The notes beneath the pieces were generated by a model. That model had not been told where the DNA came from. It was given only the letters and a program-made list of their open reading frames with translations, and ran no database searches. 32,000 nt of DNA from Candidatus Poseidoniaceae archaeon (GTDB taxonomy: Archaea > Thermoplasmatota > Poseidoniia > Poseidoniales > Poseidoniaceae): NCBI GenBank assembly GCA_943789275.1, contig CALSTM010000003.1, positions 1 to 32,000 on the forward strand, read 5' to 3'. Position numbers and translations under genes: made by a program. Below, piece by piece: positions 116 through 21,000 of the stretch (the stretch's first letter is position 1; each line of letters starts with the position of its first letter).

Positions 116-649
116 TCATTCAGTGCTTGCGGGGAGAGAGGAGTGGTGCACATTAATTCGGAGAGAGCCCTTTGTATCCTTCATGTATCCAAAAGTGTAT
201 TCCGCCTTGATCTCGTTGCCTTCAGGTGAAGTGAAGAAATAATTCCCCATGGCCAAGGCTGTTGACTCATTGAGAACCATGTCTTGGTTCTCAAACCGGA
301 CATTGGTCCAACCGTTAATGGCGAAACCGTTGTCTTCGGGGCACACTCCATTTGATGCAGTGAAATACGACAAGGCTTTCTCAAAAGTAGGGCGAAACTG
401 TTGTTTTACAGCCATAGTAGGCTTGAACAGAACAGGGCTTATCTGGTATGCATACAATGTTTCTATGTGAAGTTCGGCTCTCCCGACAAAGTCCTCACCT
501 GAACGATGCGCTGCAGAAATAGCAACGATGCCGTCTCCCCATGCTCGTTGAGCTTCCTCCACTTCTGTTACAGTCACCATTGAAGAATGCTTGAATCGGT
601 ACTCTATGAATCCGTGGGTAAGCATAATTTCTGAGCGATTAGACAGCAT
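116..649 (-). CDS. NTF2-like (SnoaL/DUF4440-type) small protein, function unknown
   Basis: The 177-aa ORF is much longer than any competing frame here. Its size and the pattern TVTEVEEAQRAWGDGIVAISAAH...YFTS recall NTF2-like/ketosteroid-isomerase-like cone-fold proteins. This is recalled from memory of the family, not a search. The start could be an internal Met. Confidence 0.6.
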   Translation of the reverse strand: MLSNRSEIMLTHGFIEYRFKHSSMVTVTEVEEAQRAWGDGIVAISAAHRSGEDFVGRAELHIETLYAYQISPVLFKPTMAVKQQFRPTFEKALSYFTASNGVCPEDNGFAINGWTNVRFENQDMVLNESTALAMGNYFFTSPEGNEIKAEYTFGYMKDTKGSLRINVHHSSLPASTE

Positions 650-1394: not shown

Positions 1395-2633
1395 TCACCT
1401 TTCTGATGCTCGAACGTATTCCACACCATCAGGCAACGGGTTCCACGGCAAGACGTCGCACCAGTGGCCAATTCTCCATGCCCGAGCTTGGGTCATTATT
1501 GAGCCCAAGAAGAGCGCACCTTGATGGCCGGAAGCCAAAACTTCGTCAAGGGCTTCTTTACCCCGATTATCGAAACGGGCCGATTGGCGTATCCCCGTAG
1601 GCATGGCTCGTCCGTTGGCATCTGCAGGTTCACACAGTTCCAAAACTGCTGAACCTGTGTTTGAATCGTATTCTTGTAAAAGAACAACAGCGTCCGAAAA
1701 ATCACTTTTGTGGAGCGTCCCGTTGTCGTTCCTCCAATTCCACCAGTGAGGGCACCACGCTTTCCAATCGCAGAATCCCCCACATGATGAGTCCCCGATG
1801 GTTGGCTCCATTGGCAATGGAGTTGGTACAGTCGCTTGCCATGCATCATAGGCTTGCTCAAGGACGTTCTCGCCGTGCGCAGCCCACTTGGATGCGTTCT
1901 GAGTGTACCATCCTTCGGTTCGAACGTTTGGCGCACTTGGATTGTTCGCAAGCAGGATATCTCGATACATTCGAAGTTGGCGGTTCACATCGGTCTTAAG
2001 TTCGGTTTCCGGGGTACGGCCTGTTTTCAAGTCAGCAACCAGCCAACCTACCAATTCTCCTTCATCGTTGATATCACCCATCAGTAAATCGAGACGTCCC
2101 ATAAGGCGGCCATCAGAGGTTTTCAGTTCACCTTCCACGGCAATCGCTAATTTTTGAATTCGCCGCCATAACGCCCCAGTGATTCGGTCTTGCTCAAGAC
2201 TGCGCACGCCTACATGGTCAAGCAGCATCATTACAGCACCGCGCTGATTGCGAACAGCATCTTTCCATTTGTCTTCTTTCCATTGAGGTCGGCGAGGGGT
2301 GGCGTGGAAAATCGCTTTTTCTTCTTCCCAGCGCGTCTTGAGAACGCCTTCTGCGAATTCGGGCATCCAGCCACTTTCAGCATCTTTGATATGCGATATA
2401 TCGTGAAGTAAGAGGTCTTCAACCGAAGCGTGGACTGCGGTTCCAAGCGACGCAGCCATCCCTGCTTTGCGCGGCAATCCTTGCCGACTGAGCCAATACA
2501 TACGCGGGCAGGTCTCGTACCTGTTCCAAGCTGATGGAGAGAGCATGTGAGGTCGGGGCTCAGAAGCCTGTTGCTCGGTCATAACGCTCGGTTGAGTCCA
2601 ATCAACATGAAACCACCGCCAGTAACATTTCAT
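1395..2633 (-). CDS. PD-(D/E)xK nuclease, Cas4/RecB-family with 4-Cys Fe-S cluster signature and an extra C-terminal domain
   Basis: - N-terminal Cys context ETCPRMYWL.
- Catalytic motifs GRLDLL, ADLKTG (D-x-K) and QLRMY (QxxxY).
- C-terminal Cys triad CGGFCDWKAWC.
- An extension of about 105 aa follows, with no motif I recognise.
- The start is uncertain. ATG at 2582 (MTEQQASEP...) is as plausible as 2633 and would leave 88 bp for the divergent promoter region. Confidence 0.85.
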   Translation of the reverse strand: MKCYWRWFHVDWTQPSVMTEQQASEPRPHMLSPSAWNRYETCPRMYWLSRQGLPRKAGMAASLGTAVHASVEDLLLHDISHIKDAESGWMPEFAEGVLKTRWEEEKAIFHATPRRPQWKEDKWKDAVRNQRGAVMMLLDHVGVRSLEQDRITGALWRRIQKLAIAVEGELKTSDGRLMGRLDLLMGDINDEGELVGWLVADLKTGRTPETELKTDVNRQLRMYRDILLANNPSAPNVRTEGWYTQNASKWAAHGENVLEQAYDAWQATVPTPLPMEPTIGDSSCGGFCDWKAWCPHWWNWRNDNGTLHKSDFSDAVVLLQEYDSNTGSAVLELCEPADANGRAMPTGIRQSARFDNRGKEALDEVLASGHQGALFLGSIMTQARAWRIGHWCDVLPWNPLPDGVEYVRASER

Positions 2634-2670: not shown

Positions 2671-3468
2671 ATGGAACGCCCAAGTGTGCGCTTGAATACG
2701 AAAATCGAGACTGAGAATGCAATGGTTGTGGCTTGTTTTCCAAGCATAGGCATGGTATCAAGCGTCGTCGCTCATTTTCTCATTGACCATCTCGACTTGG
2801 AGTTCGTCGGTGCAGTCGTCGACCCTCGGCTTCCAGTCATTACCCTCATCCAGGAAGGCGAGCCATTGCCGGTTATCCGTGCATATGCTGGAAAGCCACA
2901 ATGCACAATTGAGGGATGCGATCAAGTGATTTTGTTGATGAGTGAATTGGTCATTCCAGAACCGCTGGTCAACGACATCGTTTGGGCTATGTTTGAATGG
3001 TCACGAGAAAACAAAATTGTTCACGCTGTCGTGATTGATGCGTTCGCTAAAGAAGGAATGAAAGGAAACCTCAACGGAGCAGAACCGACCATCGAATACG
3101 AAGATACAGAAGGAATTGATGTCGTAGGAATTGGTGCAAATCAAAAGGTTCGAGACATGTTGAAATCGATGGACATCACCCTTCTCAATCAAGGGGTCAT
3201 CAAAGGTATCAACGCGGCCATTCTCAGTGAAGCACGTCGTCGTGGCCTCGATTTGATGTCGATTATGGTAGAAGCCGACCCTCGTTGGCCTGATGCTCGT
3301 GCTGCAGCTACACTGATTGAGACGCTCAACAAGGTCCTGCCGGCCATTGACCTTCCGCATCAACCGCTGCTCGAAGAGGCTGAATTCTTAGAAAGCCAAA
3401 TCAAAGCCATGATGGAAGGTGCTGATGCGAAAACTGAAGTTTCGACCAGCAATTCAATGTACGGATGA
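2671..3468 (+). CDS. PAC2-family proteasome assembly chaperone (archaeal PbaB-like)
   Basis: The 265-aa ORF has the N-terminal signature ...ENAMVVACFPSIGMVSSVVAHFLIDHL, typical of the PAC2/COG1938 family (x-G-F-P-G-I-G-x-V-G type). It has an acidic C-terminal tail ending in YG. It is the only confident plus-strand gene. Its 3' end overlaps the convergent gene at 3454 by 15 bp. Confidence 0.85.
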   Translation: MERPSVRLNTKIETENAMVVACFPSIGMVSSVVAHFLIDHLDLEFVGAVVDPRLPVITLIQEGEPLPVIRAYAGKPQCTIEGCDQVILLMSELVIPEPLVNDIVWAMFEWSRENKIVHAVVIDAFAKEGMKGNLNGAEPTIEYEDTEGIDVVGIGANQKVRDMLKSMDITLLNQGVIKGINAAILSEARRRGLDLMSIMVEADPRWPDARAAATLIETLNKVLPAIDLPHQPLLEEAEFLESQIKAMMEGADAKTEVSTSNSMYG

Positions 3469-5160: not shown

Positions 5161-7695
5161 TCAGTCCCTCCTCATGAAGGCGAAGAAACCAATCCCTAGT
5201 CCAAACAGCAACAACATCGTTCCTGAAATCAACCCGCCGGTGGTCGAGGGTCCAGGGGCTGCTTGAGCAGTGGTTTGAACGACGACCGTTTGGGGAGCAG
5301 TAGCGCCTGCAATCAATGCTTCTTCACCGATGAGAGGTTGAACGGAATAGGTGTTTTCTCCAGCAAACAGCGGCTGGTCAGTGAACGAAAGTTCATCCGT
5401 AACTCCAATCGAAATACCGTTACGAAGAATTGTGAAATTGGCATCTGGTCCGTCCCAAGCCCACTGCAAATCGACATTTCTACCGGTCGAGACGGAAGTG
5501 AATTCGGAGACGGTTGGTCCTTGAACGACAAGCAATTGAACGTTCGAAGTATCTTCCCCGCCCATGTCATCAACAACAACGAGCGTTACAACAATATTCG
5601 CCGTAGGGAAGATGGAAACATCGGTTCCCGAAGCGGCGCCAGTCATGCTGTTCGTATCCGTCCAAGACCACAATGCAGTTACGATTTGTCCGTCAATGTC
5701 AGTGGAGAGAGACGCACTGAGGTCAACGCGTTCTCCAAGCCAAATAGGATCCGTTTTTACCGTTATTTCAGAAGTGGGGGCGGTGTTGAGAACCGTTGTA
5801 GAAGAGGTCGCAGTAACACCAGAGAGTTGGCCTTCATCGGTCGGCGTTACATGAACCGACCATGTTTGCCCAGGACCGAGATAACTTGCAGGGACGCTTG
5901 TAGCGTTCATGAGTGTGCCATCGAGGAAACCGTTTCGATACCATTGTACATTCGTTTGAACTTCGTCTCCATCCGCATCGTCGGTCGTAATGACGACATT
6001 AAGAGTATCTTGCGAAGTAATGTTTTCTGAAACCGCAACAGATGCGCTGGGTGCGCTGTTGAGGACGGTCACGTTTGCAGTAAGCGGAGTGGTGCTGTAT
6101 CCGTTCCCATCGCCTGCCTTGACTTGTACGGTCCAAACTTCGTCTTTCATCGTCGAAGATGAGGGGAGAGTTGTCAATCCAGTCAACGACGATTTCATGA
6201 TTCCATCACGCCACCACGTAATTTCTGAGTTTGATTCAGCGTCCCCGTCAAGATCCGACATCGTGAACTGAACTGAAATCTCGTCCGTGGTATATGCCTC
6301 ACTGTGAGAGAGTGTGACGGATTCTGTAACGGGCACAGTGTTCTGGACCGTCAACTGATTGCTCGAAGTCCAAGACGACCATTCTGTACCGTCGTTCACT
6401 CGAACTTGAGCAAACCAGATTTGCCCTTTTTCAGTAAATGCTGATGGGATGATGTGGCTGTTTTCAGCGAATGCGTAAGCGGCGTTGTTGAGGAACCATT
6501 GGATTTCCACATTTGTTTCGGCATCCCCGTCAGCGTCAGAATACGTGTAGGCCACAGAAAAGTCGTCGGTCGTGAAAATAGGACCGGAACTCAATACCAC
6601 GGTGTTGGCGACTGGAGGTGTGTTGACTTGCCCTCCACCAATTGAAACTGCTTGTGAAGAAACCCATTGTGAAACATCTTCACTGTCGTTCGCTCGAACT
6701 TCAACAACCCAAGAATCGCCGTCACGAGTGGCATAGGCAGGTAATGTTTCAACGTCGTTCAATTCAGGAATCAATATCCCGTCCAAAAACCAGCGGACCT
6801 CGAAGTTCACGACGTCGGCATCTGCATCGAAGGAAGTGCTGGTAAACGAAAGTGAATCGTCTTCAGTTGGCTGGTTTGGCGAAAGTGTAGGAGCGGTTGT
6901 TGTGGGTGCTGAATTGGCAATGGTGAGCACATTACTGAACATAGGCCCCCCTACATCTGAACCATCCGAAGGCAGGACCTTTGCACTCCACTCCTGTCCT
7001 TTCGCAGTTTCTGACGGTGAAACTGTGGTGCCAGATAGCGAAGTCTGCTCGACCCCATCCTTGAACCATTGAATCGTAGTTCCTGATTCAGGGTCGTTTT
7101 CTGGGTCAGAATAAGAATACGTGAGCACCAGCGTATCGGTCGTGGTCGCTCCGCTCGGACCAAGCATGAGGTTGGAGACGCTTGGCGGTGAGTTTGGAGC
7201 GGCTCCCGCCTCAGGAATTTGGAACGAAAGGGTATCCCATCGGTCACCGTTGTTGTTTCCGCTGGAATCCGCTGTTAGCCCTGCAACTGTGAGAGCAGTT
7301 ACGCCAGAACCTGTTGATGGTGCAATCCAATCAATGCTCCAAGAGCGTTGGCTGCTGCCAGTAATCGAATGGGTCGCGCTGTTTTGAGCTTGATTGACGT
7401 TCACTGCAAAACCAATTCCTGCAGAGAGAGTTCCTTTGTCAACTTCTAAATTAAATCCACCACTGCTACCAGAGACTCCATTGCTCACTGAAATACTGAG
7501 CGTGTAGGTCGAGCCGGCCGTATATTGTGCAGGATGGCCGGTCAGTGAAACGGTTGCAGCAGTGGTGCCGGATTGGGTGTGGCATGAACAGCCAGTACTG
7601 CGATTATGAATACCGTTGGAGTTGCCTTGCGTAAGTGGCATTGAACCCAACAAGACCAGAAGAACCATACCGGTAACAAGAAATTTACGATTCAT
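5161..7695 (-). CDS. large secreted cell-surface protein: CSCH Reeler-like module, five ~95-aa tandem beta-sandwich repeats, PKD-like and Fn3-like domains, C-terminal TM anchor
   Basis: - The ORF track starts at 7761. The ATG at 7693-7695 gives a canonical signal peptide, MNRKFLVTGMVLLVLLGSMPLTQG, so it is preferred.
- CSCH motif at nt 7579-7590 (checked).
- Five repeats share ..T.D.l.v.Y.YsD.DGD.e....I.W+.+G....l....lp...t.KG..W.v.V...DG.
- The C-terminus PGPSTTGGLISGTMLLLFGLGIGFFAFMRRD is a TM helix plus a basic tail at the extreme end. Confidence 0.85.
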   Translation of the reverse strand: MNRKFLVTGMVLLVLLGSMPLTQGNSNGIHNRSTGCSCHTQSGTTAATVSLTGHPAQYTAGSTYTLSISVSNGVSGSSGGFNLEVDKGTLSAGIGFAVNVNQAQNSATHSITGSSQRSWSIDWIAPSTGSGVTALTVAGLTADSSGNNNGDRWDTLSFQIPEAGAAPNSPPSVSNLMLGPSGATTTDTLVLTYSYSDPENDPESGTTIQWFKDGVEQTSLSGTTVSPSETAKGQEWSAKVLPSDGSDVGGPMFSNVLTIANSAPTTTAPTLSPNQPTEDDSLSFTSTSFDADADVVNFEVRWFLDGILIPELNDVETLPAYATRDGDSWVVEVRANDSEDVSQWVSSQAVSIGGGQVNTPPVANTVVLSSGPIFTTDDFSVAYTYSDADGDAETNVEIQWFLNNAAYAFAENSHIIPSAFTEKGQIWFAQVRVNDGTEWSSWTSSNQLTVQNTVPVTESVTLSHSEAYTTDEISVQFTMSDLDGDAESNSEITWWRDGIMKSSLTGLTTLPSSSTMKDEVWTVQVKAGDGNGYSTTPLTANVTVLNSAPSASVAVSENITSQDTLNVVITTDDADGDEVQTNVQWYRNGFLDGTLMNATSVPASYLGPGQTWSVHVTPTDEGQLSGVTATSSTTVLNTAPTSEITVKTDPIWLGERVDLSASLSTDIDGQIVTALWSWTDTNSMTGAASGTDVSIFPTANIVVTLVVVDDMGGEDTSNVQLLVVQGPTVSEFTSVSTGRNVDLQWAWDGPDANFTILRNGISIGVTDELSFTDQPLFAGENTYSVQPLIGEEALIAGATAPQTVVVQTTAQAAPGPSTTGGLISGTMLLLFGLGIGFFAFMRRD
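7213..7614 (-). other. Reeler-like module of the 866-aa protein (aa ~50-183)
   Basis: The pattern is GCSCH..(tvsLtG.P.qYtaGstYtLsi)..GGFnLev..G....saTHsi......sidWiAPs..g.vtl.vagl......W. It matches my recollection of the Reeler-domain layout (Cys/His near the start, GF-x-L, x-TH, W-x-aP). It is paralogous to nt 4665-5054. Confidence 0.4.
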
Positions 7696-7760
7696 GCCAA
7701 TACCACTGGTTAAGCAGTTATCAAAGGGTTGGTGTATTGATTTGACAAAACACTGATTCA

Positions 7761-9914
7761 TCAGAAGTCAAACAGCGACGGTTGATTGTTCTCAGGTGAC
7801 TTCGTGTCTGCAATTGGAGATGGAACCGTTGAATCCTGGATGAGGGGGTCCCTTTGTGATGCCAAGGCTGCTTCAAGCTGTTGCTCACTCCAAATCTGAA
7901 CGCCTAAAGATTCTGCTTTCGTAAGTTTCGAACCTGCTTTTTCACCAGCCACCAAAACGCTGAGTTGTGAAGAAACGCTTCCAACCACCTTTCCGCCTGC
8001 TGCTTTAATCGTTAACTGAACCTCTTTGCGTGGGCGCTGGAGTGAACCGGTGAGGCAGAACGTCATTCCATCCAAAGGACCGCCAGATGCTGCTTTAGGT
8101 TGGTCTGTGATGGTGAGCAAGTTCGAAAGGTCAAGGAGCATTTCTTTACGCTTGGAAAGTCCGTCTCGGACTTGCAAAGCCACTTTTTCGCCAATGCCGT
8201 CAACGGTGCAAAGTGAACGTACAGCCTGATTTTCTGTATATGGCTTGCCTTTATCGTCAGTAAGCGGACCAAACTGAACCTCACCCATCGATGCGGATGC
8301 GTCTTCTACCCATTGCATAAGTGATTGGAAATCGCCAACATGCTGAGCCACTGATGTTGCCAATTCGGGACCAATGCCTGGGAGGCCGAGCGCATGCAGG
8401 AATTTGGCAAGTGGAAGCGTCTTTACCTTGTCCAATTCCTTCAGTACATTGAGCGAGGATTTCTCCCCCATCCTCTCGATGCTCTCAAGTTCTGCCTGCT
8501 GGAGTCGGAAGAGGTCCGGTATTCCAGAGATAAGTTCTGCATCAAGGAGTTGCTCAACCAGTTTTTCACCGATGCCGTCCATCTCGAGAGACCTGCACCA
8601 ATACAAAATCGTCCGGCTGGTACGCGCCTCGCACATCAAATCACTGCAGCGAAGAAAAGCTCCTTCAACCTCTAAAACACCGTTACAAGCGGGACATTGG
8701 GAAGGAATAGAGATGGTTTTTTCTAGAGGCAAAACCCCTTCAAAGGCTGTTCCGTCAGCGTGAAATCTTCCCTTAAGATCACTCTGAATGGCTGGGCCAA
8801 GTCCAGATTCGATTTTTGGAATCACGTCTCCACGGCGCACAATCAGTACTTTATCACCGAGATTGAGGTTGAGGCGTTCGACCTCTCCGACATTGTGCAA
8901 CGTCGTATTTTCAACAGTGACTCCCCCTACTGTTTGGGGAGCGATGCGTGCAACAGGCGTCACAGCACCCGTTCGGCCCGTTTGCCAGTCCACACCAAGT
9001 AAGACTGAAGTTGCTTCTTCCGGTGGGAATTTCCAAGCCAGTGCCCATCGTGGATGATGCGCCGTTGAGCCGAGGCGTTCTCGCTGTTGTAAATCATCTA
9101 ATTTGAACACGATTCCATCAATTTCAAACTCGTATGAACTGCGGTTTTCACTCCACTGCTTGGTGTATTCAATCATATCTTTTTGCGGATTTTCTGCATC
9201 AAAAACATGCCACGGGGCCGGTTCAATGCCAATTTTATCTTTGAGCAATTCAAGCAATTGACTGTCGTACATGACATCGGGTGAATCGTTGACGAATTTC
9301 ACGTCGTATGCACAGAATACCAAGTCTGAAGCATCTGCTTTACCGTCTCCATGCTTTTGGCGGAGGGCACCGGAACAGAGATTGCGAGGGTTTGGCGAAA
9401 CATCACGGTACTTTTCTTCGAACGTCTTCAGCGGCATTACCACTTCTCCACGAACATGGCAGTCCACTGGAAGGTTCAGGCGGGTTGGAATGTTGGCCAC
9501 TTGCTTGGCATTCAGAGTGACATCTTCGCCTCTTTCACCGCTTCCACGGGTGGCAGCTCGGTGGAGATTTCCGGCAACATACTCCAATGAAAGCGCAGAC
9601 CCGTCCAATTTCGGTTGTGCAAGATATTGTTTTGCGCCAAAGGTGGATTGCGTGATAAAATGGATAATGTCTTCATCGGTAGTTCCTTTGTCGAGTGAAC
9701 GCATTGGGAATCGATGCTCGACCTTCACCGTGCCCGGAAGTGGTTCTGGACCCACTTGGTGGAGGACTGCGTTCTCTGGGTCGAGCGTTTTTAGCTCATC
9801 CCATAATGCGTCGAACTCAGCGTCAGTGACTTCTGGAGACGACTGGTTGTAGTACAGTTCGCGGTGATAGCGAACCGCTTCGGCCAGTTGCTGAATACGC
9901 TCCGGACCGCCCAT
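7761..9914 (-). CDS. ligA: NAD-dependent DNA ligase LigA (bacterial type)
   Basis: - 717-aa ORF with the full domain order.
- Ia domain: YHRELYYNQSSPEVTDAEFDALWDEL.
- Adenylation Lys motif: KLDGSALSLEY.
- OB region, then the 4-Cys Zn finger CPACNG...CSDLMC.
- HhH region, then BRCT (GMTFCLTGSL...).
- A 32-aa tail ending in QPSLFDF.
- ATG at 9912-9914. The TGA at 7761-7763 overlaps a possible downstream ATG by 1 nt. Confidence 0.97.
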   Translation of the reverse strand: MGGPERIQQLAEAVRYHRELYYNQSSPEVTDAEFDALWDELKTLDPENAVLHQVGPEPLPGTVKVEHRFPMRSLDKGTTDEDIIHFITQSTFGAKQYLAQPKLDGSALSLEYVAGNLHRAATRGSGERGEDVTLNAKQVANIPTRLNLPVDCHVRGEVVMPLKTFEEKYRDVSPNPRNLCSGALRQKHGDGKADASDLVFCAYDVKFVNDSPDVMYDSQLLELLKDKIGIEPAPWHVFDAENPQKDMIEYTKQWSENRSSYEFEIDGIVFKLDDLQQRERLGSTAHHPRWALAWKFPPEEATSVLLGVDWQTGRTGAVTPVARIAPQTVGGVTVENTTLHNVGEVERLNLNLGDKVLIVRRGDVIPKIESGLGPAIQSDLKGRFHADGTAFEGVLPLEKTISIPSQCPACNGVLEVEGAFLRCSDLMCEARTSRTILYWCRSLEMDGIGEKLVEQLLDAELISGIPDLFRLQQAELESIERMGEKSSLNVLKELDKVKTLPLAKFLHALGLPGIGPELATSVAQHVGDFQSLMQWVEDASASMGEVQFGPLTDDKGKPYTENQAVRSLCTVDGIGEKVALQVRDGLSKRKEMLLDLSNLLTITDQPKAASGGPLDGMTFCLTGSLQRPRKEVQLTIKAAGGKVVGSVSSQLSVLVAGEKAGSKLTKAESLGVQIWSEQQLEAALASQRDPLIQDSTVPSPIADTKSPENNQPSLFDF

Positions 9915-10995: not shown

Positions 10996-13900
10996 TCAAA
11001 GATGACGTTCGTCAACTGAAGAAATGTCGCCTGCATTACCACCGCCACGTTTCAAGCGTACAGCGAAGGCAATCAGTCCACCAATGACCAAGACAATCAG
11101 GAGAAGAGTACCTGTTGAAAAGTCTCCAGAATCTGTAGATATTTCTCCTTCATTGATGTCGAGTATGCCGTCATTGTCATCGTCTATATCGGCAACAAGG
11201 TACGTTTCCTTGCCCTCCGGACAGGCGATGTTGTTTGGCAGGCCATCTTCATCTGTATCTTGCCAAGCACATGGGTCGACAGGCCAAGCATCGCGTACGT
11301 CGGGGTGCCCGTCGTTGTCATCATCTGTATCTTCACTGTCTGGGCCACAAGGATAGCCGTTCTCCGCATCGAACCAAACTCCGGTAGACAAAGTGAACGT
11401 GCATGTGTTGGTCCAATCTCCGTCGCTGTCAAGTTCGGTGACTTCGAAATCGACAGCGCTGGTTCTGGTCGCTCCAAGCGTATCAGTCACTTGAACCTCA
11501 AGGACATACAGCCCATGTTGCAAATCTGTAATGTTAAATTGTGCTTCATTCGGTCCGCGTAAGACTTCATTTCCAGAAGCATCAGAAATAATCCACACGA
11601 GTGTCAATTGCTCCATTGAGTCTAAATCATCAGAGTATGAAGCGACTGCCAACAAGTGAACCGATTCCATAACTCGCTGGCCTGAGTAAGGTTCAGTGAT
11701 CTCTACTGTTGGCGCAGCATTGGTTCTCAGTACGACCTCTACAATCGCTGACATTGTCGATGTGATGTTGACTTGGACAACGGTATTTGGAAGACCGCTT
11801 GCTTGCGTCGATACGGTGAAACTCGACAAGGTCGAACTTGTACCGTTTCCGTCAAAAGAGATTGGCATTTCGACAAACTGCGAGACGCCTTGGACGGTTG
11901 TTGAATACGAAGGTGAGAGGTCGGTAGTTTGCAACGTAAAGGTGACATCGTGAGGTGCTCCATCCAGTGTTGCACTCAAAGTGAACGTCTTCCAGCTGCG
12001 TAGTTCCGCCCCATCGTACATCAATGGATTTTCTGTGACCGTATCAATTAAATCGATGAACATCGAACCCGAAGCAGACATGATGCCAGCGGTTGTGCCG
12101 CCTTCTATTCGAACCGGATAATTCTCTGCTGAAACAACTGTTGCAGCGAAGATGTCGGGATTTCGGACAATCAATGGCGCTACAGAAGCGTCGCCTTCAT
12201 CGGCATGGACATCGATTCCAACCGAATACGAAAGGGCAACGAAATCAATGACGAGTAAAGAATCTGATGTTCGGCCATGGTGACTGATAAATGCCGTTCC
12301 TGTGCCGAGGCCATTCATAACAACACCATCTATTGTTCCGGCTGATTCGTCAATATCGATTGCCGGTGAGCCGGTGATTTCAATGTCGCTCATCTGAAGG
12401 TTTTGACAATTCATTGCCGTAATACCAGCGCTGGAACCGACTGTTCCCACGAGCGTTGAAACGATCAAACCCTCGTCGATTGAATCAAGGGCGAGAATGT
12501 TGCCTAAACCGTTGAACGCAGAAGCGTTTACATCGTTCAAAAGACCGGTTACCGCAGTGAAATCAAAGCCTGTCGAGACGTTTTCACCAATGTGGATACC
12601 ATTCAACTGCACATCGACTTGACGTGCCCAAATACCCACACCATTGCACGAATGGAAATGGACGTTTTCGAGCGTCAGTGAAGTCGATGAAGGGAACGCT
12701 TTGATGCAACCGTCACCTGCGTCATACAGATTCGAATTCTTCAAAACAACATCAGCATCGCTGTTTGGGTCAATGAGAATTAGCGAATCGGAGCCGGAGG
12801 AACGGGCCATTGTAATCCCGTCGCCGATGAATGAGCCCTTGCTCTCAACGTACAAAGCAGGTGATGCTTCGACAAGCGTTGTGCTGGACAAGTCAATGGT
12901 GGCACTGGAACCACCAATCACAAATCCTCCCCAGCGTGAACCAAGGCCGGTTGAAGAAAGAGTCGCTGCACCAGCATCGATTCGCCCGTCCACACTGATT
13001 TGGCCGCCGTCTGCAATTCTCAAGGAGACGCCGTCATCGATGGTCAACGTTCCAGATGCCGCTACAGCCAAGTTACCGTCGAGGAAATATGGACTCCATT
13101 GTGCTTCAAGAACAAGCCAACTCGACAGTGTCCCCGGAGTAACAGTTGAAGCCATGAACGTGTGCTTAAAGGATGAAAGAGTATCCCAAGTGACGAAGTC
13201 ATAGAATGAGCCGATCTGTAAATTGATACTCTTAACGCCGCCGAGGGTGTCTGATGAATCGTCGACCACGCGTGCAACCGCAGTGGTCGAAACTTGACCT
13301 ACCGAATCGGTCGTTGCAAGGGCTCCATCAACGGATACTGTAGCCCCCGATACGGCTTGTCCCTTGTCCAAAACCGTAACTTCAAGAGAAGACTGGAGTG
13401 TTAGTTTTGAACCTGTGAGAACGGTTACAGTACCAAGAACTTGACCGTCCAAAATCTCTACATCACAGCCCGGTTGAATGAGGAGCGTTCCAAGAATATC
13501 GATGTTTACAGAACTGCGAGTGGTTTGACAAACCCAAGTGACGTTCGCATCAACAGTCAATCCCGAATCACCTTGTGACTGGGTGAGGGTAGAATCAATG
13601 CCAAGAGCAACAGAATTGGCACTGACCGTTGCGCCTGAGCCGGTTAGGCTGCCAGAGCCTTCGATGCTAACTACACCGTCAGCTGGAAGTTGAAGAGTGG
13701 TATCTGCAAGCTCAAGTGCGCCGCCCGTCAATACAGTGAGATCACCGGTCAATTGGTGGGGCGAGCCGTCAGGTCTTGCACCCAGGAACACATAATCGCC
13801 TGTATCGATGGTCCAATCGCCTTGTGGGATAACTGGGACTTGAACCGATTGACCCATTTGTGAGCCGTACAAGGTGACTCGTATACCCGCACCTGCCAAA

Positions 13901-15696
13901 GTGACATCCGCAGATGAGCCACTGCTGGCCAAAGGAAGCGTTGCTGCACCGTTCACGTCGCTGACAATCTCATACCCATGCACCTGGATGGTGGCTTGGA
14001 CTGGGTTACCAGCCAAATCGGTGAAGGTAACTGGTGTTTCTTCAAGATAGAGTGTTGTAGAAACTGAAATTGTGGCTGTCGTCGAACCGCCGTAGATGAA
14101 TGTTCCATCTCCCAATGCATCCGACGAAGAGGTGTGTGTGTTTTGAGGTTGGAAATCCCTCACTGTTGCCGAAGACTCGCTGCTGATTGAGAGTGGCGTA
14201 GTATGGGTCATAGCAAGCCAATCGGAGAGGTGGAGGGTGGATTCTGCCTCTAAAACGACGCCGTCTGGATAGACGCGAGTGGTGAGCGAATCGCTGGTAA
14301 GCGAACTTTGTTCCATTTCGATGCCAACGCCATTGCCGTCTTTAATTGAGAAACTGTCGCTTGATAGCGTAGCATGATTTGCTTGTATTCCATTTCCGTA
14401 GTGAAGAAGAGTAAGGGAAGCAGCGGCAATGTTCGTGTACCATGCTGCAAGCCCTAGAGAACTCGTATCTTGAGATGAATACGTCTTGGATGCTGAAACA
14501 TCTCCCCAAGTATGCAACCCCCCAAGAATATCAAAAGCCGTTGATGCAGCAGAGGTCATCTCAACGGACACTGTGCCAAAAACACTGTCTGGGTCTCTGA
14601 GTTCAATTCCAGTGGTCCCCGCTGTTACATTCGTCCAATCAAGAGAGAGGAGGCCTAAGCCTGTACCCTCGATTCCTCGTTCGAATGCGACAAGTTCGAG
14701 GCCCGTCAACGTGTGATTGCCGTAACCTGAAAGAGAAAAGCCATTGTTCACATTTGAGATGTTCACATCGTTCATGCTGCAATCGCCCAAGCAACGCAGG
14801 TCAACGACTGCCGATGGTTCTGAAGTATTCCCTTCAAACTCCACATCATCGACGGTGAATGAGGTTGCTCCGTTCGAAAGAAGGAATCTGTGGCCGGAAA
14901 TGGCTGCGTTAGAGACTGTGAGGTCGTCGCTGTTTGCAGCATCGATGAACAAGGCCACGTCCTCTCCGGTAATGCTGCTTACAGATGTCGAGGCCCCTTC
15001 TTGACTTGCAATCGCAACAGTCGTCTGGAAGAATCCTATTCCTGTGGCTGACAGGGAACCACTGCTGGAACGCAAGCCCGTTCCCACTTGTGTCATGGTA
15101 ACGGTATCAACAGTGGTCGTTCCTGTCGACCAAACTCCACCGGCAACATCGGTGAATATTCCACCTGATAGATTGAGGTAGCCTGAGTTTCGTACAACTT
15201 CGTAATCCACGTGCTCTGCGGTAAGCGTATCGATATTCGATGATGCTTGGTTGTTGATGCCAATGTATGCATCCGTCAAAGTCAGTTTTTCAGCCGATAA
15301 ATGCCCGTCTACCTTTACCGCCGTCTTCGCATTATCAATCGATACGGTATTCAGTACTGCATGACCTTTGTTGGCAATGTAAATGCCTGTCCAGAGACCT
15401 GCCCCATGAGAACCTGCAGTCAAAGGAGTTTGAGAAGAGAAAAACGTCGAGGAGGTGGCAAGAAGCGTTCCATCAACCCGAATCCAATACCCGTCACCAC
15501 CGTCAACAGTAGTACCGGGTGACAAGGTAAGCGTGGAGCCGTTCTCAACAGTGACGTTGCCGGTGAGAACAACATCGCCAGACCAAGTCGTGTTCACTTG
15601 AATGATTGAATCTGAAGCATGGGCTGTTGGAGCCATGAGGGAAAGAGGCGTGAGCACAAGAAGAAGGGCTAAACAGAGTGCACGAGCGGTTCGCAT
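10996..15696 (-). CDS. giant secreted parallel beta-helix (PbH1/pectate-lyase-like repeat) surface protein with Ig-like domain, TSP3-type Ca-binding loops and C-terminal TM anchor
   Basis: - 1566-aa ORF with ATG at 15694-15696.
- Signal peptide MRTARALCLALLLVLTPLSLMAPTAHAS.
- Long runs of ~22-aa G/N/S/T-rich beta-helix turns in two blocks.
- Ig/PKD-like segment (PTVEITEPYSGQ...EVQVTDTLGA).
- TSP3-type loops: [37 protein letters not shown].
- TM helix LLLIVLVIGGLIAFAV plus a 22-aa basic tail. Confidence 0.9.
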   Translation of the reverse strand: MRTARALCLALLLVLTPLSLMAPTAHASDSIIQVNTTWSGDVVLTGNVTVENGSTLTLSPGTTVDGGDGYWIRVDGTLLATSSTFFSSQTPLTAGSHGAGLWTGIYIANKGHAVLNTVSIDNAKTAVKVDGHLSAEKLTLTDAYIGINNQASSNIDTLTAEHVDYEVVRNSGYLNLSGGIFTDVAGGVWSTGTTTVDTVTMTQVGTGLRSSSGSLSATGIGFFQTTVAIASQEGASTSVSSITGEDVALFIDAANSDDLTVSNAAISGHRFLLSNGATSFTVDDVEFEGNTSEPSAVVDLRCLGDCSMNDVNISNVNNGFSLSGYGNHTLTGLELVAFERGIEGTGLGLLSLDWTNVTAGTTGIELRDPDSVFGTVSVEMTSAASTAFDILGGLHTWGDVSASKTYSSQDTSSLGLAAWYTNIAAASLTLLHYGNGIQANHATLSSDSFSIKDGNGVGIEMEQSSLTSDSLTTRVYPDGVVLEAESTLHLSDWLAMTHTTPLSISSESSATVRDFQPQNTHTSSSDALGDGTFIYGGSTTATISVSTTLYLEETPVTFTDLAGNPVQATIQVHGYEIVSDVNGAATLPLASSGSSADVTLAGAGIRVTLYGSQMGQSVQVPVIPQGDWTIDTGDYVFLGARPDGSPHQLTGDLTVLTGGALELADTTLQLPADGVVSIEGSGSLTGSGATVSANSVALGIDSTLTQSQGDSGLTVDANVTWVCQTTRSSVNIDILGTLLIQPGCDVEILDGQVLGTVTVLTGSKLTLQSSLEVTVLDKGQAVSGATVSVDGALATTDSVGQVSTTAVARVVDDSSDTLGGVKSINLQIGSFYDFVTWDTLSSFKHTFMASTVTPGTLSSWLVLEAQWSPYFLDGNLAVAASGTLTIDDGVSLRIADGGQISVDGRIDAGAATLSSTGLGSRWGGFVIGGSSATIDLSSTTLVEASPALYVESKGSFIGDGITMARSSGSDSLILIDPNSDADVVLKNSNLYDAGDGCIKAFPSSTSLTLENVHFHSCNGVGIWARQVDVQLNGIHIGENVSTGFDFTAVTGLLNDVNASAFNGLGNILALDSIDEGLIVSTLVGTVGSSAGITAMNCQNLQMSDIEITGSPAIDIDESAGTIDGVVMNGLGTGTAFISHHGRTSDSLLVIDFVALSYSVGIDVHADEGDASVAPLIVRNPDIFAATVVSAENYPVRIEGGTTAGIMSASGSMFIDLIDTVTENPLMYDGAELRSWKTFTLSATLDGAPHDVTFTLQTTDLSPSYSTTVQGVSQFVEMPISFDGNGTSSTLSSFTVSTQASGLPNTVVQVNITSTMSAIVEVVLRTNAAPTVEITEPYSGQRVMESVHLLAVASYSDDLDSMEQLTLVWIISDASGNEVLRGPNEAQFNITDLQHGLYVLEVQVTDTLGATRTSAVDFEVTELDSDGDWTNTCTFTLSTGVWFDAENGYPCGPDSEDTDDDNDGHPDVRDAWPVDPCAWQDTDEDGLPNNIACPEGKETYLVADIDDDNDGILDINEGEISTDSGDFSTGTLLLIVLVIGGLIAFAVRLKRGGGNAGDISSVDERHL

Positions 15697-15780
15697 GGAC
15701 GCTACTCAACAGCACCACATATCAAACCAAAGGTTACCGGTGAGTGGAAGTGAAAGATTCAGCATAAGGTACAGGAAAAG

Positions 15781-15855
15781 TGGGCCCGCCCAGATTTGAA
15801 CTGGGGTCTGACGGCCCCCAGCCGCCAAGTATAGGCCAAGCTAACCCACGGGCCC
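15781..15855 (-). tRNA. tRNA-Pro (anticodon GGG)
   Basis: - A 75-nt cloverleaf read on the minus strand.
- Acceptor stem GGGCCCG/CGGGCCC.
- Anticodon stem GGCGG/CCGUC with loop CU-GGG-GG.
- T arm CCCAG-UUCAAAU-CUGGG.
- Discriminator A, with no encoded CCA.
- The D stem is imperfect.
- It starts 13 nt after the rpoN stop and is followed by a T run. Confidence 0.9.
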
Positions 15856-16082: not shown

Positions 16083-16520
16083 TCATCGATAGGACTTCTG
16101 CTTCTTGCGACGAGCACCACGTCCAAGTTGGTGCTTTGGTTCCTTGCGTCGAGGATCGTTAACCAAAAGGCTACGGTCGAAGCGAAGGTATTCATCTCGA
16201 AGTTCTTCATCAATTCCTTCTGCGCCGCCGTTGTAGTGGACAAGTCCACGTGCAATGGCCGTGCGGATAGCGTCGGTCTGACCCATGATTCCACCACCAA
16301 GTGTGGTGATGTTGATGTCAACCTTACTCAAGCGGTTCATTGCGTCTGCAATGACCAGTGGTTCCATCGACTTGCGGCGAGCAAGAGACGGTTGAAGGAT
16401 TTCAATAGGTGCACTGTTGACACGTACTCGGCCTTTACCAGCCTTAACTGAGGCACGAGCAATTGCTGTCTTACGCTTACCAGAGGATTCTACTGACTTT
16501 TGCTTTTTACGAGCCATCAT
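16083..16520 (-). CDS. rps9: 30S ribosomal protein S9 (uS9)
   Basis: The 145-aa ORF contains GKRKTAIARA..KAGKGRVRVN and the C-terminal basic ...RRKKQKSYR ending typical of uS9. It overlaps the rpl13 stop (ATG 16518-16520, TGA 16517-16519). Confidence 0.95.
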   Translation of the reverse strand: MMARKKQKSVESSGKRKTAIARASVKAGKGRVRVNSAPIEILQPSLARRKSMEPLVIADAMNRLSKVDINITTLGGGIMGQTDAIRTAIARGLVHYNGGAEGIDEELRDEYLRFDRSLLVNDPRRKEPKHQLGRGARRKKQKSYR

Positions 16521-17002
16521 TGCTCACCTCCAGTCCAACGGTGGGATGGAGCGCCGAGATCGGCGCTGATATCTCCAAGAGTGATGAATCGCTCAGGAAG
16601 GTCCTTTCGGAATTTGGTGTCATCGCCGTTCTCATGGCCTTCTGGCAAATCGCCGGAAAGATGGGCTGGGCAACCGATTTCTACGCGTAGGTTGCGTAGG
16701 GCTCGGCGTCCGCTGCTCTTCTTTTGGTAAGGCAACATACCGCGAACTGCGCGCTTGAGAATCATGTCCGGCATACGTGGGAAGAACGGCCCCTTACGAG
16801 CGTGGTTCAACTTGTACTTGGCGTGATACGTATTGAGGACCGAACGAGGTCGGCCAGTCACGATAGCGTTCTCAGCATTGACGATGATTACTTTGTCATC
16901 GCGGCCTTCTCGAGCGGCTTTGAGCAGAATGTCTGCTGTAGCCGATGCAAGACGTCCGAGGACGAGTTCATTGGCGTCGAATACATATGTTGTTTCATCC
17001 AA
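16517..17002 (-). CDS. rpl13: 50S ribosomal protein L13 (uL13)
   Basis: The 161-aa ORF contains VFDANELVLGRLAS..A..LLKAAREG, the uL13 signature. The only in-frame start is TTG at 17000-17002. It overlaps the rpl18e 3' end by 8 nt. Confidence 0.95.
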   Translation of the reverse strand: MDETTYVFDANELVLGRLASATADILLKAAREGRDDKVIIVNAENAIVTGRPRSVLNTYHAKYKLNHARKGPFFPRMPDMILKRAVRGMLPYQKKSSGRRALRNLRVEIGCPAHLSGDLPEGHENGDDTKFRKDLPERFITLGDISADLGAPSHRWTGGEQ

Positions 17003-17360
17003 GAATAACTACCCCCTTGCCGGATGGGTTTTCGTTCATCAGCTCGCTGTAGGTCACAAATCGACCACCAGCGGCTTCTATCTTCTCGCGTGCACCGTTG
17101 CTAACACTGTAGGCGGCGATGGTGTGGTTGGCAGACAATTCACCTGAACCGAGCAGCTTGCCTGGAACGAGGATGGTTGCACCCTCGGGGGCGTAGCGGC
17201 TCACACGGCTCAAGTTCGGCTGCGCCCAATTTTTGCGACTCTTAGAGAGGCGCATGGCCACATCTCGCCAAACAGCGGCTCCGGTGTCGCGAGACTGGGC
17301 TTTCAACTGGTTGATAACATCAACAAGTTGTGCGTTTGTCTTACGTGTAGGATTGCTCAT
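16995..17360 (-). CDS. rpl18e: 50S ribosomal protein L18e (eL18)
   Basis: The 121-aa ORF has the N-terminus MSNPTRKTNAQLVDVINQLKA...W..VA..L..SRKN and a position 5' of rpl13, both as in archaeal L18e. The 15 nt upstream contain GAGGGAG (SD-like). Confidence 0.9.
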   Translation of the reverse strand: MSNPTRKTNAQLVDVINQLKAQSRDTGAAVWRDVAMRLSKSRKNWAQPNLSRVSRYAPEGATILVPGKLLGSGELSANHTIAAYSVSNGAREKIEAAGGRFVTYSELMNENPSGKGVVILG

Positions 17361-18014: not shown

Positions 18015-21000
18015 TCAAATCTTGAAATCTGTGCCTTCGCCTTCAACAATACCCGCTTGTCGGACAGAGCCATCGGCAGCGACGAATTCGCCGGCCTTGG
18101 TCTGCTTATCGTAAAGGTTCACCAATTCCTTGCGCTCAACCATTCCACCTTCGCCAAGTGCGATGGTGAGTGAACGGGTGATGGCATCCAAGGTGTGCAA
18201 TGCACGGTCTCGGTGACTTGCATCGATGGTATGGTCGGAATAACGAGCTTCTTCAAAGACAGAAAGGAAGTCATCAAGTTGCTCAGAAGGTACCATACTG
18301 AACGCTGAACGAACTGCAGTTTCGAATTCACGGGTTGTTTCGTATACCTTCTTCATGAAACCGTAACGCTTGAAGTGCTTCACCAGATTCTTGTAACAGT
18401 CAAAGATGATTGCAATGAACTCGTTGCTCGCTTCCAATTGCATCATTGCGTCGGTCAAGATACCCTTGAGGGCTTGGACTTGACGGCGAGCTTGTGCACG
18501 TTGGTAGTAGATCGCTCCAGCAATCAACAACGACATTAAGACAATGACAAACGCCATTGTTTTCGCCGGAGTAAAGAAACTTGCTTGGTCATCGAGTGAC
18601 GCTGCTTTCATCCAAATGATTTCGTGAGTCACGTTGTCCAATGATTCTTCGAAATAGGTCGAACCAGGGTAGTATGCGATGATTCGCCATTGGCCAGAAC
18701 AAGCAACACCGTCACAGGTCTTTCCATCGAAAGCCCATTCAAAGTCTGCAATACCCTGCTCATTTGTACGGGATTTGTTGGTTCCTTCGACAACCCACTC
18801 GTTGTTCTCATCGGACCAGTATTGGCGGACAAACCAAACTTCTTCGTTTTCGACAGATAAGTCAAGACGGTCGCGTTGCAGTGCAATGGAACCGATTACA
18901 GGGTCGCCTGTGTCCAATCCATTGTCACCAGAGTGGCTCCATGTTTGCTTCACTTGTAAATCGACACGAGAGCGGACCAAAACCAACTGGTCAACGTGAG
19001 AACCGTTCAAAACATTGGACGAGTCCTTGTCACAGCCGCCAGGGATGTTGACATCTGGTTCGAACGCAATTCGCAATGTACGGAAACCTTCGAGTTTACC
19101 ACCAGTAGTTTCAACGCCGCGCAAGGTTGGATTTTGACTTGGGTCGCCACTGAACCACTCGATGGTTCCGTCGATATCGCTTGTACGAATCGTTGAAATC
19201 GGTCGAATGTTCTGTTCAGGGTCAAGGTAAATGTTGAGGCACTTGCCACCGACAAACTGGCCATTGGATTGCATCAGTTTAGCATCAACGTGGAACGATT
19301 CCTTAAGATACAATACTGGGTATTCTGTCGTATTAGGAGCAGTCCAAGTTTCAACGCTGGACTTGAACGGTCCAACTTCATTCAATGCGAGCGTAGAGTT
19401 CGAAAAGACATCGAATTCAGTCTCATATGTGTCGTTCTGATACCGATAAGCATCGTTGTTGTCATAGGAAGAGTAGGTCACTGTGACCTTTGCCTTACCT
19501 GCAGATACGTCGGACAGTGGACATTCAATTGAGAAGTAGCCGTCGAGGTCTGTCATACCGGTATTGCACGAGGTTGGGCTCGATTGGCTGTTTACCATCT
19601 CGTAGTTCACCCGAATCTTACGGTTGGTGAGGTTTGTGCCGAGTTCGTCTTGAAGTTGTCCCGTGACAATCATTGGCTTCGGAATGACTTCACCGGTAAT
19701 CGGACTGATCTCGCTCGTGTAAACAATCTGGTCGTCTACCGATAATGCAGTTCGTCCAATGAAGGAGAACCCATTGGCATTGTTGGTCATCTTCAGCCTA
19801 AAGTGATCGTTTCCAGGTACGCTAAGGCACGGGTCCCAAGCGCCTTGGATGCCAAGCGAAGCTGGGTCAAGAGAAGCGCAACCTTCGTTTGGAAGGTTTT
19901 CTTCAAACCGTAGAATAACGTTGACTGGGCCAAATCCATCAGGTAAGAACGACTCTGGGTCATCCCTCAACGAAACAGCATTCAGAGGTGAAATATCTGC
20001 CTTTAGACATCCTGTTCGTCCGTTGAAAGTAGTGCTGGTTTCAAGTCGATCTAAAATACCGTCTTGGTTGATGTCGCGGTCTGCAAATCCATCGCCGTTA
20101 CCATCATAGTAGCACAGGTGAGATGAGTCAGATGCCGGCTCTGGTAAAGTGATGATTCCAGCTGACGGGCGAACTGTCGCCACGATTTGACGGTGCGTAA
20201 CACCGTTGAAATCTACGCCTTCAAAGATAACATCGACCAATCCGCCGTTTGGAGATTCTGCACCGTCGAGTGCCGAACCGCCTGAATCACGTATAGACGT
20301 AGTATTGTCGTCGGTAACTTGTGCCGTGAAATCCCAAATATCGCCAGACTGTCTGAGATTTGAACTGGTTGAATCAACCGAAAGGTAGGTTCGGGATACG
20401 ACCCAAACTTGTTGCACCATGGTGTTGCCCTTGAGCAACGGCGTTCCCGCAAACTCGAATTGAAGTGTAAAGTCACCCAAATCATCTGCTGCTGAGATGT
20501 TAAATGGAATTTCAAAGAAACCATTGTCGTCTGTGTAATTCACACCGGTTCTACCGTCTGCGGACCAAGTGTAGTTAACAGGTACATTCCGTACTGGTTG
20601 CAGAGAATTGTCAATGAGCTTGGCTTGAATTGTTGTACTGGTGTTTCGATACAAACGAGGTACAGAAGTTGTTTGGAAGTCGGTCGTTCCAACGACGGTG
20701 ACGTTGATGTATGCGCCTGTTTCTGCAAGAGTTGAACTGTTTCCGGTGAAGTAGAATGCGGAGTTCGTGAAGTCAACACGCATTCCGTATGTTCCTGCGC
20801 CGTATTGTTGGTACCAAGACCAGTTGTATTCGAAGTTCGCATCACAGGTAGGGCAGTCCTTTGTTGGGCGTTGCGTGTATGCCGTCTCTGTAGAACCGAG
20901 GAATTGGCCGTTGCCGTCGATATCGACTTGAAGTGCAATCGGATCTGCATCCCACGGTTCGTTGGTTCGGTTGGTAACTGAACCGGTAACAAAGAGCGTG

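Follow-up and report, generated by a model that had tools for sequence, protein, structure and literature searches.

The window analyzed here, a 32,000-nucleotide stretch of DNA from a Candidatus Poseidoniaceae archaeon (assembly GCA_943789275.1, contig CALSTM010000003.1, positions 1 to 32,000), carries on its minus strand ligA (7761..9914), an open reading frame (ORF) of 717 amino acids that TIGR00575 and Pfam identify as an NAD-dependent DNA ligase of bacterial type. The last folded domain of this protein is a BRCT domain (residues 612-681, minus strand 7872..8081; Pfam PF00533, E 1.9e-12), after which a disordered and hypervariable linker, SQRDPLIQDSTVPSPIADTKSPENN (residues 686-710, minus strand 7785..7859; delimited by AlphaFold2 (AF2) pLDDT and column conservation), leads to QPSLFDF (residues 711-717, minus strand 7764..7784; delimited by orthologue alignment), a C-terminal motif of clamp-binding type that we propose to be a truncated PCNA-interacting peptide (PIP) box. 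Read directly from the sequence, the TGA stop codon follows at 7761..7763 on the same strand. The translated ORF ends in ...ASQRDPLIQDSTVPSPIADTKSPENNQPSLFDF and the stop, or equally ...EAALASQRDPLIQDSTVPSPIADTKSPENNQPSLFDF and then TGA, and residues 686-717 coincide exactly with positions 7764-7859; the coordinates agree with an earlier note on this DNA, which had described a 32-residue tail ending in QPSLFDF after the BRCT domain.

LigA scores 530.2 bits against TIGR00575, above the equivalog threshold (cut-off 444.45), and 529.5 bits against NF005932 (cut-off 369), while the Marine Group II (MGII) enzyme reaches 432 bits against NF010931, for which the cut-off is 1051, and is of a different type from that family, as are its relatives. 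Pfam recognizes Nlig-Ia, DNA_ligase_aden, OB, HHH_5/HHH_2 and BRCT, and the domains follow the order Ia, adenylation (KxDG), OB, zinc finger, HhH and BRCT. A 40-sequence alignment with relatives shows no variation at K102, D104 and G105 (the KxDG adenylation motif) or at the zinc-finger cysteines 407, 410, 423 and 428. An AF2 model built on 40 homologues has a mean pLDDT of 83, with all domains folded. The view that this is a horizontally acquired ligase of bacterial type finds support, the protein being of that type and published work flagging bacterial transfer (PMC4153887).

The host is a Marine Group II archaeon (Poseidoniales), and its family is probably MGIIa. The best 120 database homologues of LigA are 68-100% identical to it, and those that are named come from Candidatus Poseidoniaceae or Euryarchaeota. 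A scan of GTDB with one genome per species found LigA relatives in 485 species, the closest being 90-91% identical, and the best 80 of these 485 loci all belong to metagenome-assembled genomes or single-amplified genomes (SAGs) of Poseidoniales, covering Poseidoniaceae (MGIIa) and Thalassarchaeaceae (MGIIb). The window itself encodes the archaeal ribosomal proteins L18e, L13 and S9 and a PAC2 proteasome-assembly chaperone.

The tail was described beforehand as flexible, and both the model and the alignment support this. Folded strands and helices run to residue 688 in the AF2 model, pLDDT stays below 50 over residues 688-717 with block averages of 32-41 across 691-717, and a three-residue helical turn is predicted within the motif at L714-D716 (residues 714-716). 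Among 77 Poseidoniales sequences, conservation collapses past residue 684, the most frequent residue per column accounting for 0.04-0.29 of the sequences at 685-710 and column occupancy in the linker ranging from 17 to 75%, and it returns at 711-717. The length of the whole ligase varies from 654 to 730 amino acids among orthologues, mainly in the linker.

For the motif counts, each LigA of the 80 best GTDB loci was extended to its stop codon, giving 76 complete species-level orthologues; two loci that run off the contig end were left out, together with L047 and L065. In L047 (SAG AG-404-K16), a premature stop interrupts the LigA frame at residue 472, after which the coding sequence continues in a different frame, and in L065 an ambiguous base abolishes the stop after ...AKTLFDYD; both defects are probably assembly errors and not biology. 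The C-terminal motif is kept in 76/76 orthologues, down to 61% identity, while the 10-45 residues ahead of it cannot be aligned. Position 1 is Q in 44 of the 76 (Q711 in the window), position 3 is S or T in all of them, position 4 is L in 75 and I in one (L714), position 6 is D or E in 75, and position 7 is F, Y or W in every species (F717). Position 5, on the other hand, is free (F 45, L 12, D 8, S 6, A 3, T 2). Between zero and three residues follow position 7, and position 8, where present, is E, K, R, N, D, I or another residue.

The resulting consensus for the end of LigA is [ST]-L-x-[DE]-[FYW], which takes a different form in each clade. MGIIa tails read Q[PASK]SL[FLSAT]D[FY] with 0-3 further residues, those of a second clade [KR]TLF[DE][FY] with 0-2, and those of MGIIb TGTLDDW[ILA]; NTLDRWMS is one further form, and QRSLFEY, QRSLDDF and QRQLSDFE are other variants. 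Kept in all 76 orthologues at the end of a hypervariable linker, the LigA peptide is no product of chance but a short linear motif that is conserved and sits on a disordered tether.

The heptapeptide can be read in two registers. The PIP box has the consensus QXXhXXaa (PMC4929162), and the bacterial beta clamp recognizes the consensus motifs QL[SD]LF and QxxLxF (PMC4976356). QPSLFDF fits both types, its first five residues (QPSLF, residues 711-715) matching Q-x-[SD]-L-F and the full heptapeptide presenting Q at position 1, an aliphatic residue at position 4 and an aromatic at position 7, within a conserved island of a terminal region predicted to be disordered. The PIP consensus proposed for this peptide in the earlier note thus holds for Q1, L4 and F7 and fails for the second aromatic, which is lacking because the protein ends at position 7. 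Conservation discriminates between the registers: Phe5, the anchor of the beta-clamp motif, is replaced in 31/76 orthologues, and since position 5 varies freely while positions 6 and 7 are near-invariant, the register is the PIP one rather than the beta-clamp one, and in it the alignment across Poseidoniales finds the motif conserved in 76/76. Given that Phe5 is not conserved, the tail is unlikely to be a functional beta-clamp motif, and a free carboxylate on the aromatic is evidently not required, because up to three residues may follow it. Archaea in general are not known to have DnaN, the beta clamp. Taken together, the tail reads as a non-canonical, truncated PIP box.

Fen1, whose established partner is PCNA (PMC4929162), offers a comparison from within the archaea. 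A metagenome scan for the Fen1 motif APSEGEAQ gave, among the matches listed, 110 Fen1 ORFs, 99 of them with a complete C-terminus, and 94 of these 99 end in a PIP of the type [QK]-x-[TS]-L-x-x-[WFY]. Of these 94 tails, 53 have Q and 20 have K at position 1; T or S fills position 3 in 63, and L fills position 4 in 91. The aromatic at position 7 is W in 51 tails, F in 36 and Y in 7, while 64 have F at position 8 and 12 end before it. The share of Q at position 1 in LigA (44/76) is therefore similar to that in archaeal Fen1 (53/94), and several Fen1 proteins end as MGII LigA does, with QKSLGDF, QKSLSDF, QRSLNDF, QRTLGDF or QKNLFDF. The named sources in the scan are Methanospirillum, Methanococcoides, Methanothrix, Nitrososphaeria and Thermoplasmata.

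One divergent Fen1 (L148) ends in QFTLGDF. Its best 120 homologues are at least 80% identical and come from marine samples, one being named as a Candidatus Poseidoniia archaeon, and RQ[FL]TLG[DE]F-COOH ends all 120 of these best homologue clusters. Judged by these termini, Poseidoniia Fen1, a PCNA client of the same archaeal class, bears the same truncated motif, Q-x-[ST]-L-x-[DE]-F, as LigA. The likeness to archaeal C-terminal PIPs suggested at the outset is upheld by this Fen1 ending; the string QATLFDFL, given there for the large RFC subunit of Pyrococcus, found no confirmation in the literature searched. Searching the ORFs of the window and the 80 loci (1.46 Mb) by phmmer, with Pyrococcus furiosus PCNA and Fen1 and Thermococcus kodakarensis RNase HII as queries, gave no match for the PCNA, Fen1 or RNase HII genes. 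A Fen1 profile scan of viral contigs and a PDB search with the LigA tail each returned zero matches.

We then place the tail among LigAs outside MGII, drawing on an exhaustive search for homologues across 1.84 billion cluster representatives, in which the MGII clade stands isolated, with scores dropping from 824 to 437 bits. The statement that bacterial LigA ends at BRCT describes most of these proteins, 117 of the 146 full-length non-MGII representatives ending no more than 10 residues past the BRCT anchor (median 4), but it does not cover a minority with QxxLF-COOH tails. Twenty-two carry more than 12 extra residues, and nine of these end in QxxLF or QxxMF, in some cases with one further residue; examples of non-MGII tails are KKQLNLF, KKQLLLF, KQTSLF, TQSSLF, QQAEMF, VQLPLF and GQTALFE. 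Linker tails ending in QxxLF-COOH occur in representatives P0139, P0161, P0171, P0188, P0191, P0203, P0224 and P0240, and two contigs with LigAs of this type are bacterial by gene content, one set of neighbors being HisKA, a response regulator and a sulfatase, the other OmpA and cytochrome c. The C-terminal linkers of this bacterial minority are rich in Pro, Ala and Glu.

The closest bacterial counterpart is the LigA of Azospira sp. I09 plasmid pAZI09 (L215, NZ_AP021845.1 93704-96181), which ends in ...APQTEATALTQPSLF, that is, in TQPSLF followed by the stop. It shares the pentapeptide QPSLF with the window, but the protein terminates there, and all the bacterial tail examples end at F5 or one residue later. 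The plasmid itself is a conjugative one of the IncP type. As bacterial LigA tails, including that of Azospira, share them, neither the tail nor QPSLF is an archaeal invention; what appears specific to the archaeal clade, on comparison of these termini, is the added [DE]-[FYW] and the relaxed position 5. The earlier note had regarded the same tail in a bacterial LigA as telling against its reading, and the outcome is divided, since the tail as such and QPSLF do occur in bacteria, whereas the D-aromatic ending and the register do not occur in the bacterial tails compared. The only published beta-clamp site of a LigA is internal (QEFIRSLF, Helicobacter pylori; PMC4976356), and because it is the only one we found in the literature, terminal beta-clamp motifs on bacterial LigAs may be undescribed.

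Related endings exist in other archaeal lineages. A Promethearchaeota LigA ends in SSTLDNFFT, and another on an archaeal-looking contig (diphthamide synthase, archaeal HTH and DUF families) ends in QTKLFQ. In a bootstrapped neighbor-joining tree, MGII LigA is monophyletic in 100/100 replicates and P0123 is its sister in 99/100; P0123 ends in QATLDRFG, and its relatives in QATIDRFG and GQATLF. An initial neighbor-joining tree had put MGII beside bacterial LigAs tailed with a clamp-binding motif, a grouping that was lost in the better-aligned, bootstrapped tree, and for this reason we make no claim of a donor LigA with such a tail. The phylogeny is neighbor-joining only and is silent on whether the donor LigA already had a beta-clamp tail. 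Across the survey, tailed LigAs usually end in a clamp-type peptide whose form, where hosts can be determined, seems to follow the host clamp.

The archaeal metagenome Fen1 proteins at L139 7355-8413 and L113 6215-7312 end in QKTLF-COOH, and LigAs of likely archaeal origin, P0124 (L084 10001-11971) and P0517, end in QTKLFQ or GQATLF. These Fen1 and LigA ends resemble the pentapeptides that bind the bacterial clamp, and at a length of five residues the two kinds of motif, PIP and beta-clamp, may not be sharply separated.

The survey also brought up LigAs of unusual architecture. Those of L216 3232-7910 (JGI Ga0643530_0003483), P0139 and P0203 are 900-1078 amino acids long, P0139 and P0203 having N-terminal extensions of about 180-400 residues, and P0161 combines its LigA part with an ADP-ribosylglycohydrolase domain (PF03747) at the N-terminus. 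The LigA gene of L216 begins at the stop of an upstream reverse-transcriptase gene (RVT_1), and this arrangement could be a retroelement or a defence-type module.

The functional setting of MGII LigA is given by the MG-II genome CM001443, which a curated published survey of replication genes records as devoid of an ATP-dependent ligase, with a bacterial-type NAD ligase gained by transfer and with genes for PCNA, Fen1, RFC, PolB, PolD and RNase HII (PMC4153887). With MGII reported to have no ATP-dependent ligase, LigA is probably the Okazaki-fragment (replicative) ligase, and clamp coupling would then be under strong selection; ligases of all domains of life are known to be clamp-coupled (PMC6212786). 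We consider it likely, from the sequence evidence assembled here, that LigA finishes, in its last seven residues, with a PCNA-interacting peptide that lacks the second aromatic and ends a 25-residue disordered tether after BRCT; PCNA binding by the tail and its functional effect are inferred.

On this interpretation, Leu714 and Phe717 would insert into the hydrophobic pocket of one PCNA subunit, the peptide probably adopting a short 3-10 or helical turn, and the acidic position 6 and the S/T at position 3 may touch the interdomain connector loop. The peptide would bring the ligase to the clamp that remains on the 3' side of nicks and hold it there, this being the same clamp that Fen1 and the polymerases would use. 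Besides, the long linker would allow the catalytic core to open, re-adenylate with NAD+ and close round the nick while remaining tethered. The motif is best regarded as the archaeal counterpart of the QxxLF-COOH beta-clamp tails on a minority of bacterial LigAs, having arisen either by conversion of such a tail through the addition of [DE]-[aromatic] or independently.

Several observations weigh against a PIP box. The second aromatic of the canonical motif is missing, and Gln1 is present in 58% of species only. A bacterial LigA has the very same pentapeptide, QPSLF, at its C-terminus, such that a beta-clamp ancestry could account for part of the resemblance to a PIP. The Fen1 used for comparison belongs to a Poseidoniia lineage with a G+C of 0.37, against 0.50 here, and is not tied to the family of the window, MGIIa, and the absence of a second ligase rests on a single published genome (PMC4153887).

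Among the alternatives, the one that survives best is that the tail docks on a partner other than PCNA, for instance RPA, a polymerase subunit, a magrovirus-encoded clamp or a protease or quality-control adaptor. Short acidic-aromatic C-terminal peptides, the bacterial SSB tail among them, do serve other hubs. Similar-looking peptides of the LDFLF type bind gp45 in the ligase and polymerase of T4 (PMC6212786). Fen1, both in the same class and across archaea, nevertheless has this type of motif in this terminal place, and with residues tolerated past the aromatic, a free carboxylate is unlikely to be what is recognized, unlike in SSB tails; this leaves the explanation a small probability.

A still smaller one attaches to the idea that the tail is an inherited bacterial beta-clamp motif, QxSLF, persisting as a relic of the transferred gene and resembling a PIP by coincidence. 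Bacterial LigAs with QxxLF-COOH linker tails do exist, the Azospira plasmid enzyme ends in the very same pentapeptide, and QL[SD]LF and QxxLxF are published consensus motifs of the beta clamp (PMC4976356). A relic, however, would be expected to decay, and this motif is kept across the order in 76/76 species, with Phe5 replaced in 31 of them while D/E6 and the aromatic at position 7, both irrelevant to the beta clamp, are essentially invariant. Moreover, all bacterial examples stop at F5 or one residue later, and the published MG-II replication set includes PCNA and RFC (PMC4153887), which makes this explanation improbable.

A chance match or a functionless low-complexity tail is in effect refuted by the conservation pattern and retains a negligible probability, for although seven residues that fit a loose consensus in one protein say little by themselves, and such a pattern occurs within the last 12 residues of 4/~1510 other ORFs of at least 100 amino acids in the related loci (about 0.3%; 80 loci, 1.46 Mb; no terminal motif beyond these 4 chance cases was found in other ORFs of the window and the 80 loci), the motif is present in every complete orthologue behind a stretch that cannot be aligned, and it turns up again both in the sister clade and in one unrelated LigA of an archaeon.

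Returning to the PCNA-interacting peptide, how the tail came about bears on the proposal that the ligase was retro-fitted to the archaeal clamp. That proposal accords with the conserved PIP register and its match to Fen1, but it may mean that a beta-clamp tail was converted, not that a tail was newly added. We regard as tentative, and on balance doubtful, the stronger version of this idea, in which the MGII PIP tail is the direct evolutionary conversion of the beta-clamp tail of the donor, a disordered linker with QxSLF-COOH, and permitted the loss of the native ATP-dependent ligase. Under such a scenario, cross-affinity of QxSLF-COOH for PCNA would have let the foreign ligase work at archaeal forks, and the two added residues, [DE]-[aromatic], would have re-registered the peptide as a PIP and freed position 5.

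Known systems place these features in context. Like LigA, the archaeal proteins with C-terminal PIPs (Fen1, the RFC large subunit, RNase HII, PolB and the DP2 subunit of PolD) carry the peptide at the extreme C-terminus after a disordered stretch, sharing Q at position 1, S/T at 3, Leu at 4 and an aromatic at 7, and the profile of the 94 environmental Fen1 tails nearly coincides with that of LigA; the consensus PIP peptide of Archaeoglobus fulgidus is KTTQSTLDSFFK (PDB 1RXM). Unlike the canonical archaeal form, QXXhXXaa, LigA has no second aromatic at position 8 and an essentially fixed D/E at position 6. The carrier differs as well, being an NAD-dependent ligase, whereas archaeal ATP-dependent ligases touch PCNA through their N-terminal DNA-binding domain (PMC6212786). 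With respect to the beta-clamp motif, QPSLF fits QxSLF and a minority of bacterial LigAs bear it on a similar linker, yet the host lineage is reported to have PCNA, Phe5 is unconserved and the extra [DE]-[FYW] is conserved. T4 DNA ligase also uses a short hydrophobic peptide on a flexible segment (LDFLF, gp45-binding) to tether itself to its clamp, although that peptide lies in an internal loop of the nucleotidyltransferase domain and binds in an alpha-helical mode, and the enzyme is ATP-dependent (PMC6212786).

The nearest precedent, by analogy, appears to be NucS/EndoMS, which has a C-terminal PIP in Archaea and, after horizontal transfer, a beta-clamp pentapeptide, [EK][LY][TR]LF, in Actinobacteria (PMC8228993). 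In both cases an enzyme crossed domains and its C-terminal clamp peptide matches the host clamp. The enzymes are different, and the NucS/EndoMS interaction was shown experimentally while that of LigA is proposed from sequence. The direction is also opposite, LigA having moved from bacteria to archaea, such that the LigA case would be the mirror image of NucS/EndoMS on an essential replication enzyme. Haloferax volcanii LigN is likewise a bacterial-type ligase acquired by an archaeon and able to carry out essential ligation, but unlike MGII LigA it coexists, redundantly, with an ATP-dependent LigA (PMC7776575, PMC1684257); this redundancy indicates that a bacterial-type ligase can serve archaeal replication (PMC7776575). 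The two LigN papers (PMC7776575, PMC1684257) make no mention of a PCNA motif on LigN, and haloarchaeal LigN is not among the best 40 of 217 matches in the plasmid collection. In the literature searched, neither MGII LigA nor any other NAD-dependent ligase of archaea is described as having a PIP motif. In Candidatus Methanomethylophilus alvus, LigA is a recent transfer into a host that retains its ATP-dependent ligase, and a PIP would not be expected on it.

The remainder of the window is dominated by four very large predicted secreted or surface proteins, which fill nearly half of it and all lie on the minus strand (5161-7761, 866 amino acids; 10996-15696, 1566; 18015-26159, 2714; 26432-28138, 568). 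Repeat domains, N-termini resembling signal peptides and hydrophobic anchors at the C-terminus are features of several of them, and the 568-residue protein bears bacterial TSP3 repeats. The 866-residue ORF lies immediately downstream of ligA, its first ATG sharing one base with the ligA stop in TGATG (7759-7763). Its second Met opens a signal-peptide-like segment (MNRKFLVTGMVLLVLLG), so translation may in fact begin 22 codons further on, which would make the overlap spurious.

A tRNA-Pro(GGG) (15780-15855, minus strand) adjoins the cluster of archaeal ribosomal protein genes L18e-L13-S9 (16083-17360, minus strand). At 1395-2633 (minus strand), divergent from the PAC2 proteasome chaperone gene (2671-3468), the window encodes a PD-(D/E)XK nuclease of 412 amino acids (PF12705) whose Cys-rich stretch, CGGFCDWKAWCPHWW, points to a Cas4/AddB-type Fe-S cluster; neither terminus of this nuclease shows a clamp motif. 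A 177-residue protein (116-649, minus strand) matches the NCBIfam model for metal-independent carbonic anhydrase at 124 bits, far under the cut-off of 350, and an Rfam scan of the window gave zero matches.

Replication proteins are thought to resist horizontal transfer, since they need to fit into multi-protein machines. Here, a bacterial-type LigA is apparently the sole ligase of one of the most abundant archaeal groups of the surface ocean, and its fitting to a foreign replication machine seems to have been achieved by seven residues on a tether. The last two of these residues are predicted to separate PCNA use from beta-clamp use, such that QPSLF-COOH from a bacterium and QPSLFDF-COOH from an archaeon form a natural pair for clamp specificity. 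An Asgard lineage and at least one further archaeal lineage show the pattern of clamp peptides again, the tail of a LigA appears to indicate which type of clamp its host has, which may serve as an annotation rule, and C-terminal beta-clamp motifs on a subset of bacterial LigAs seem undescribed so far. If the conversion of a beta-clamp tail were true, whether replication enzymes can cross between bacteria and archaea would be decided by clamp-binding peptides, acting as a general and minimal adaptor.

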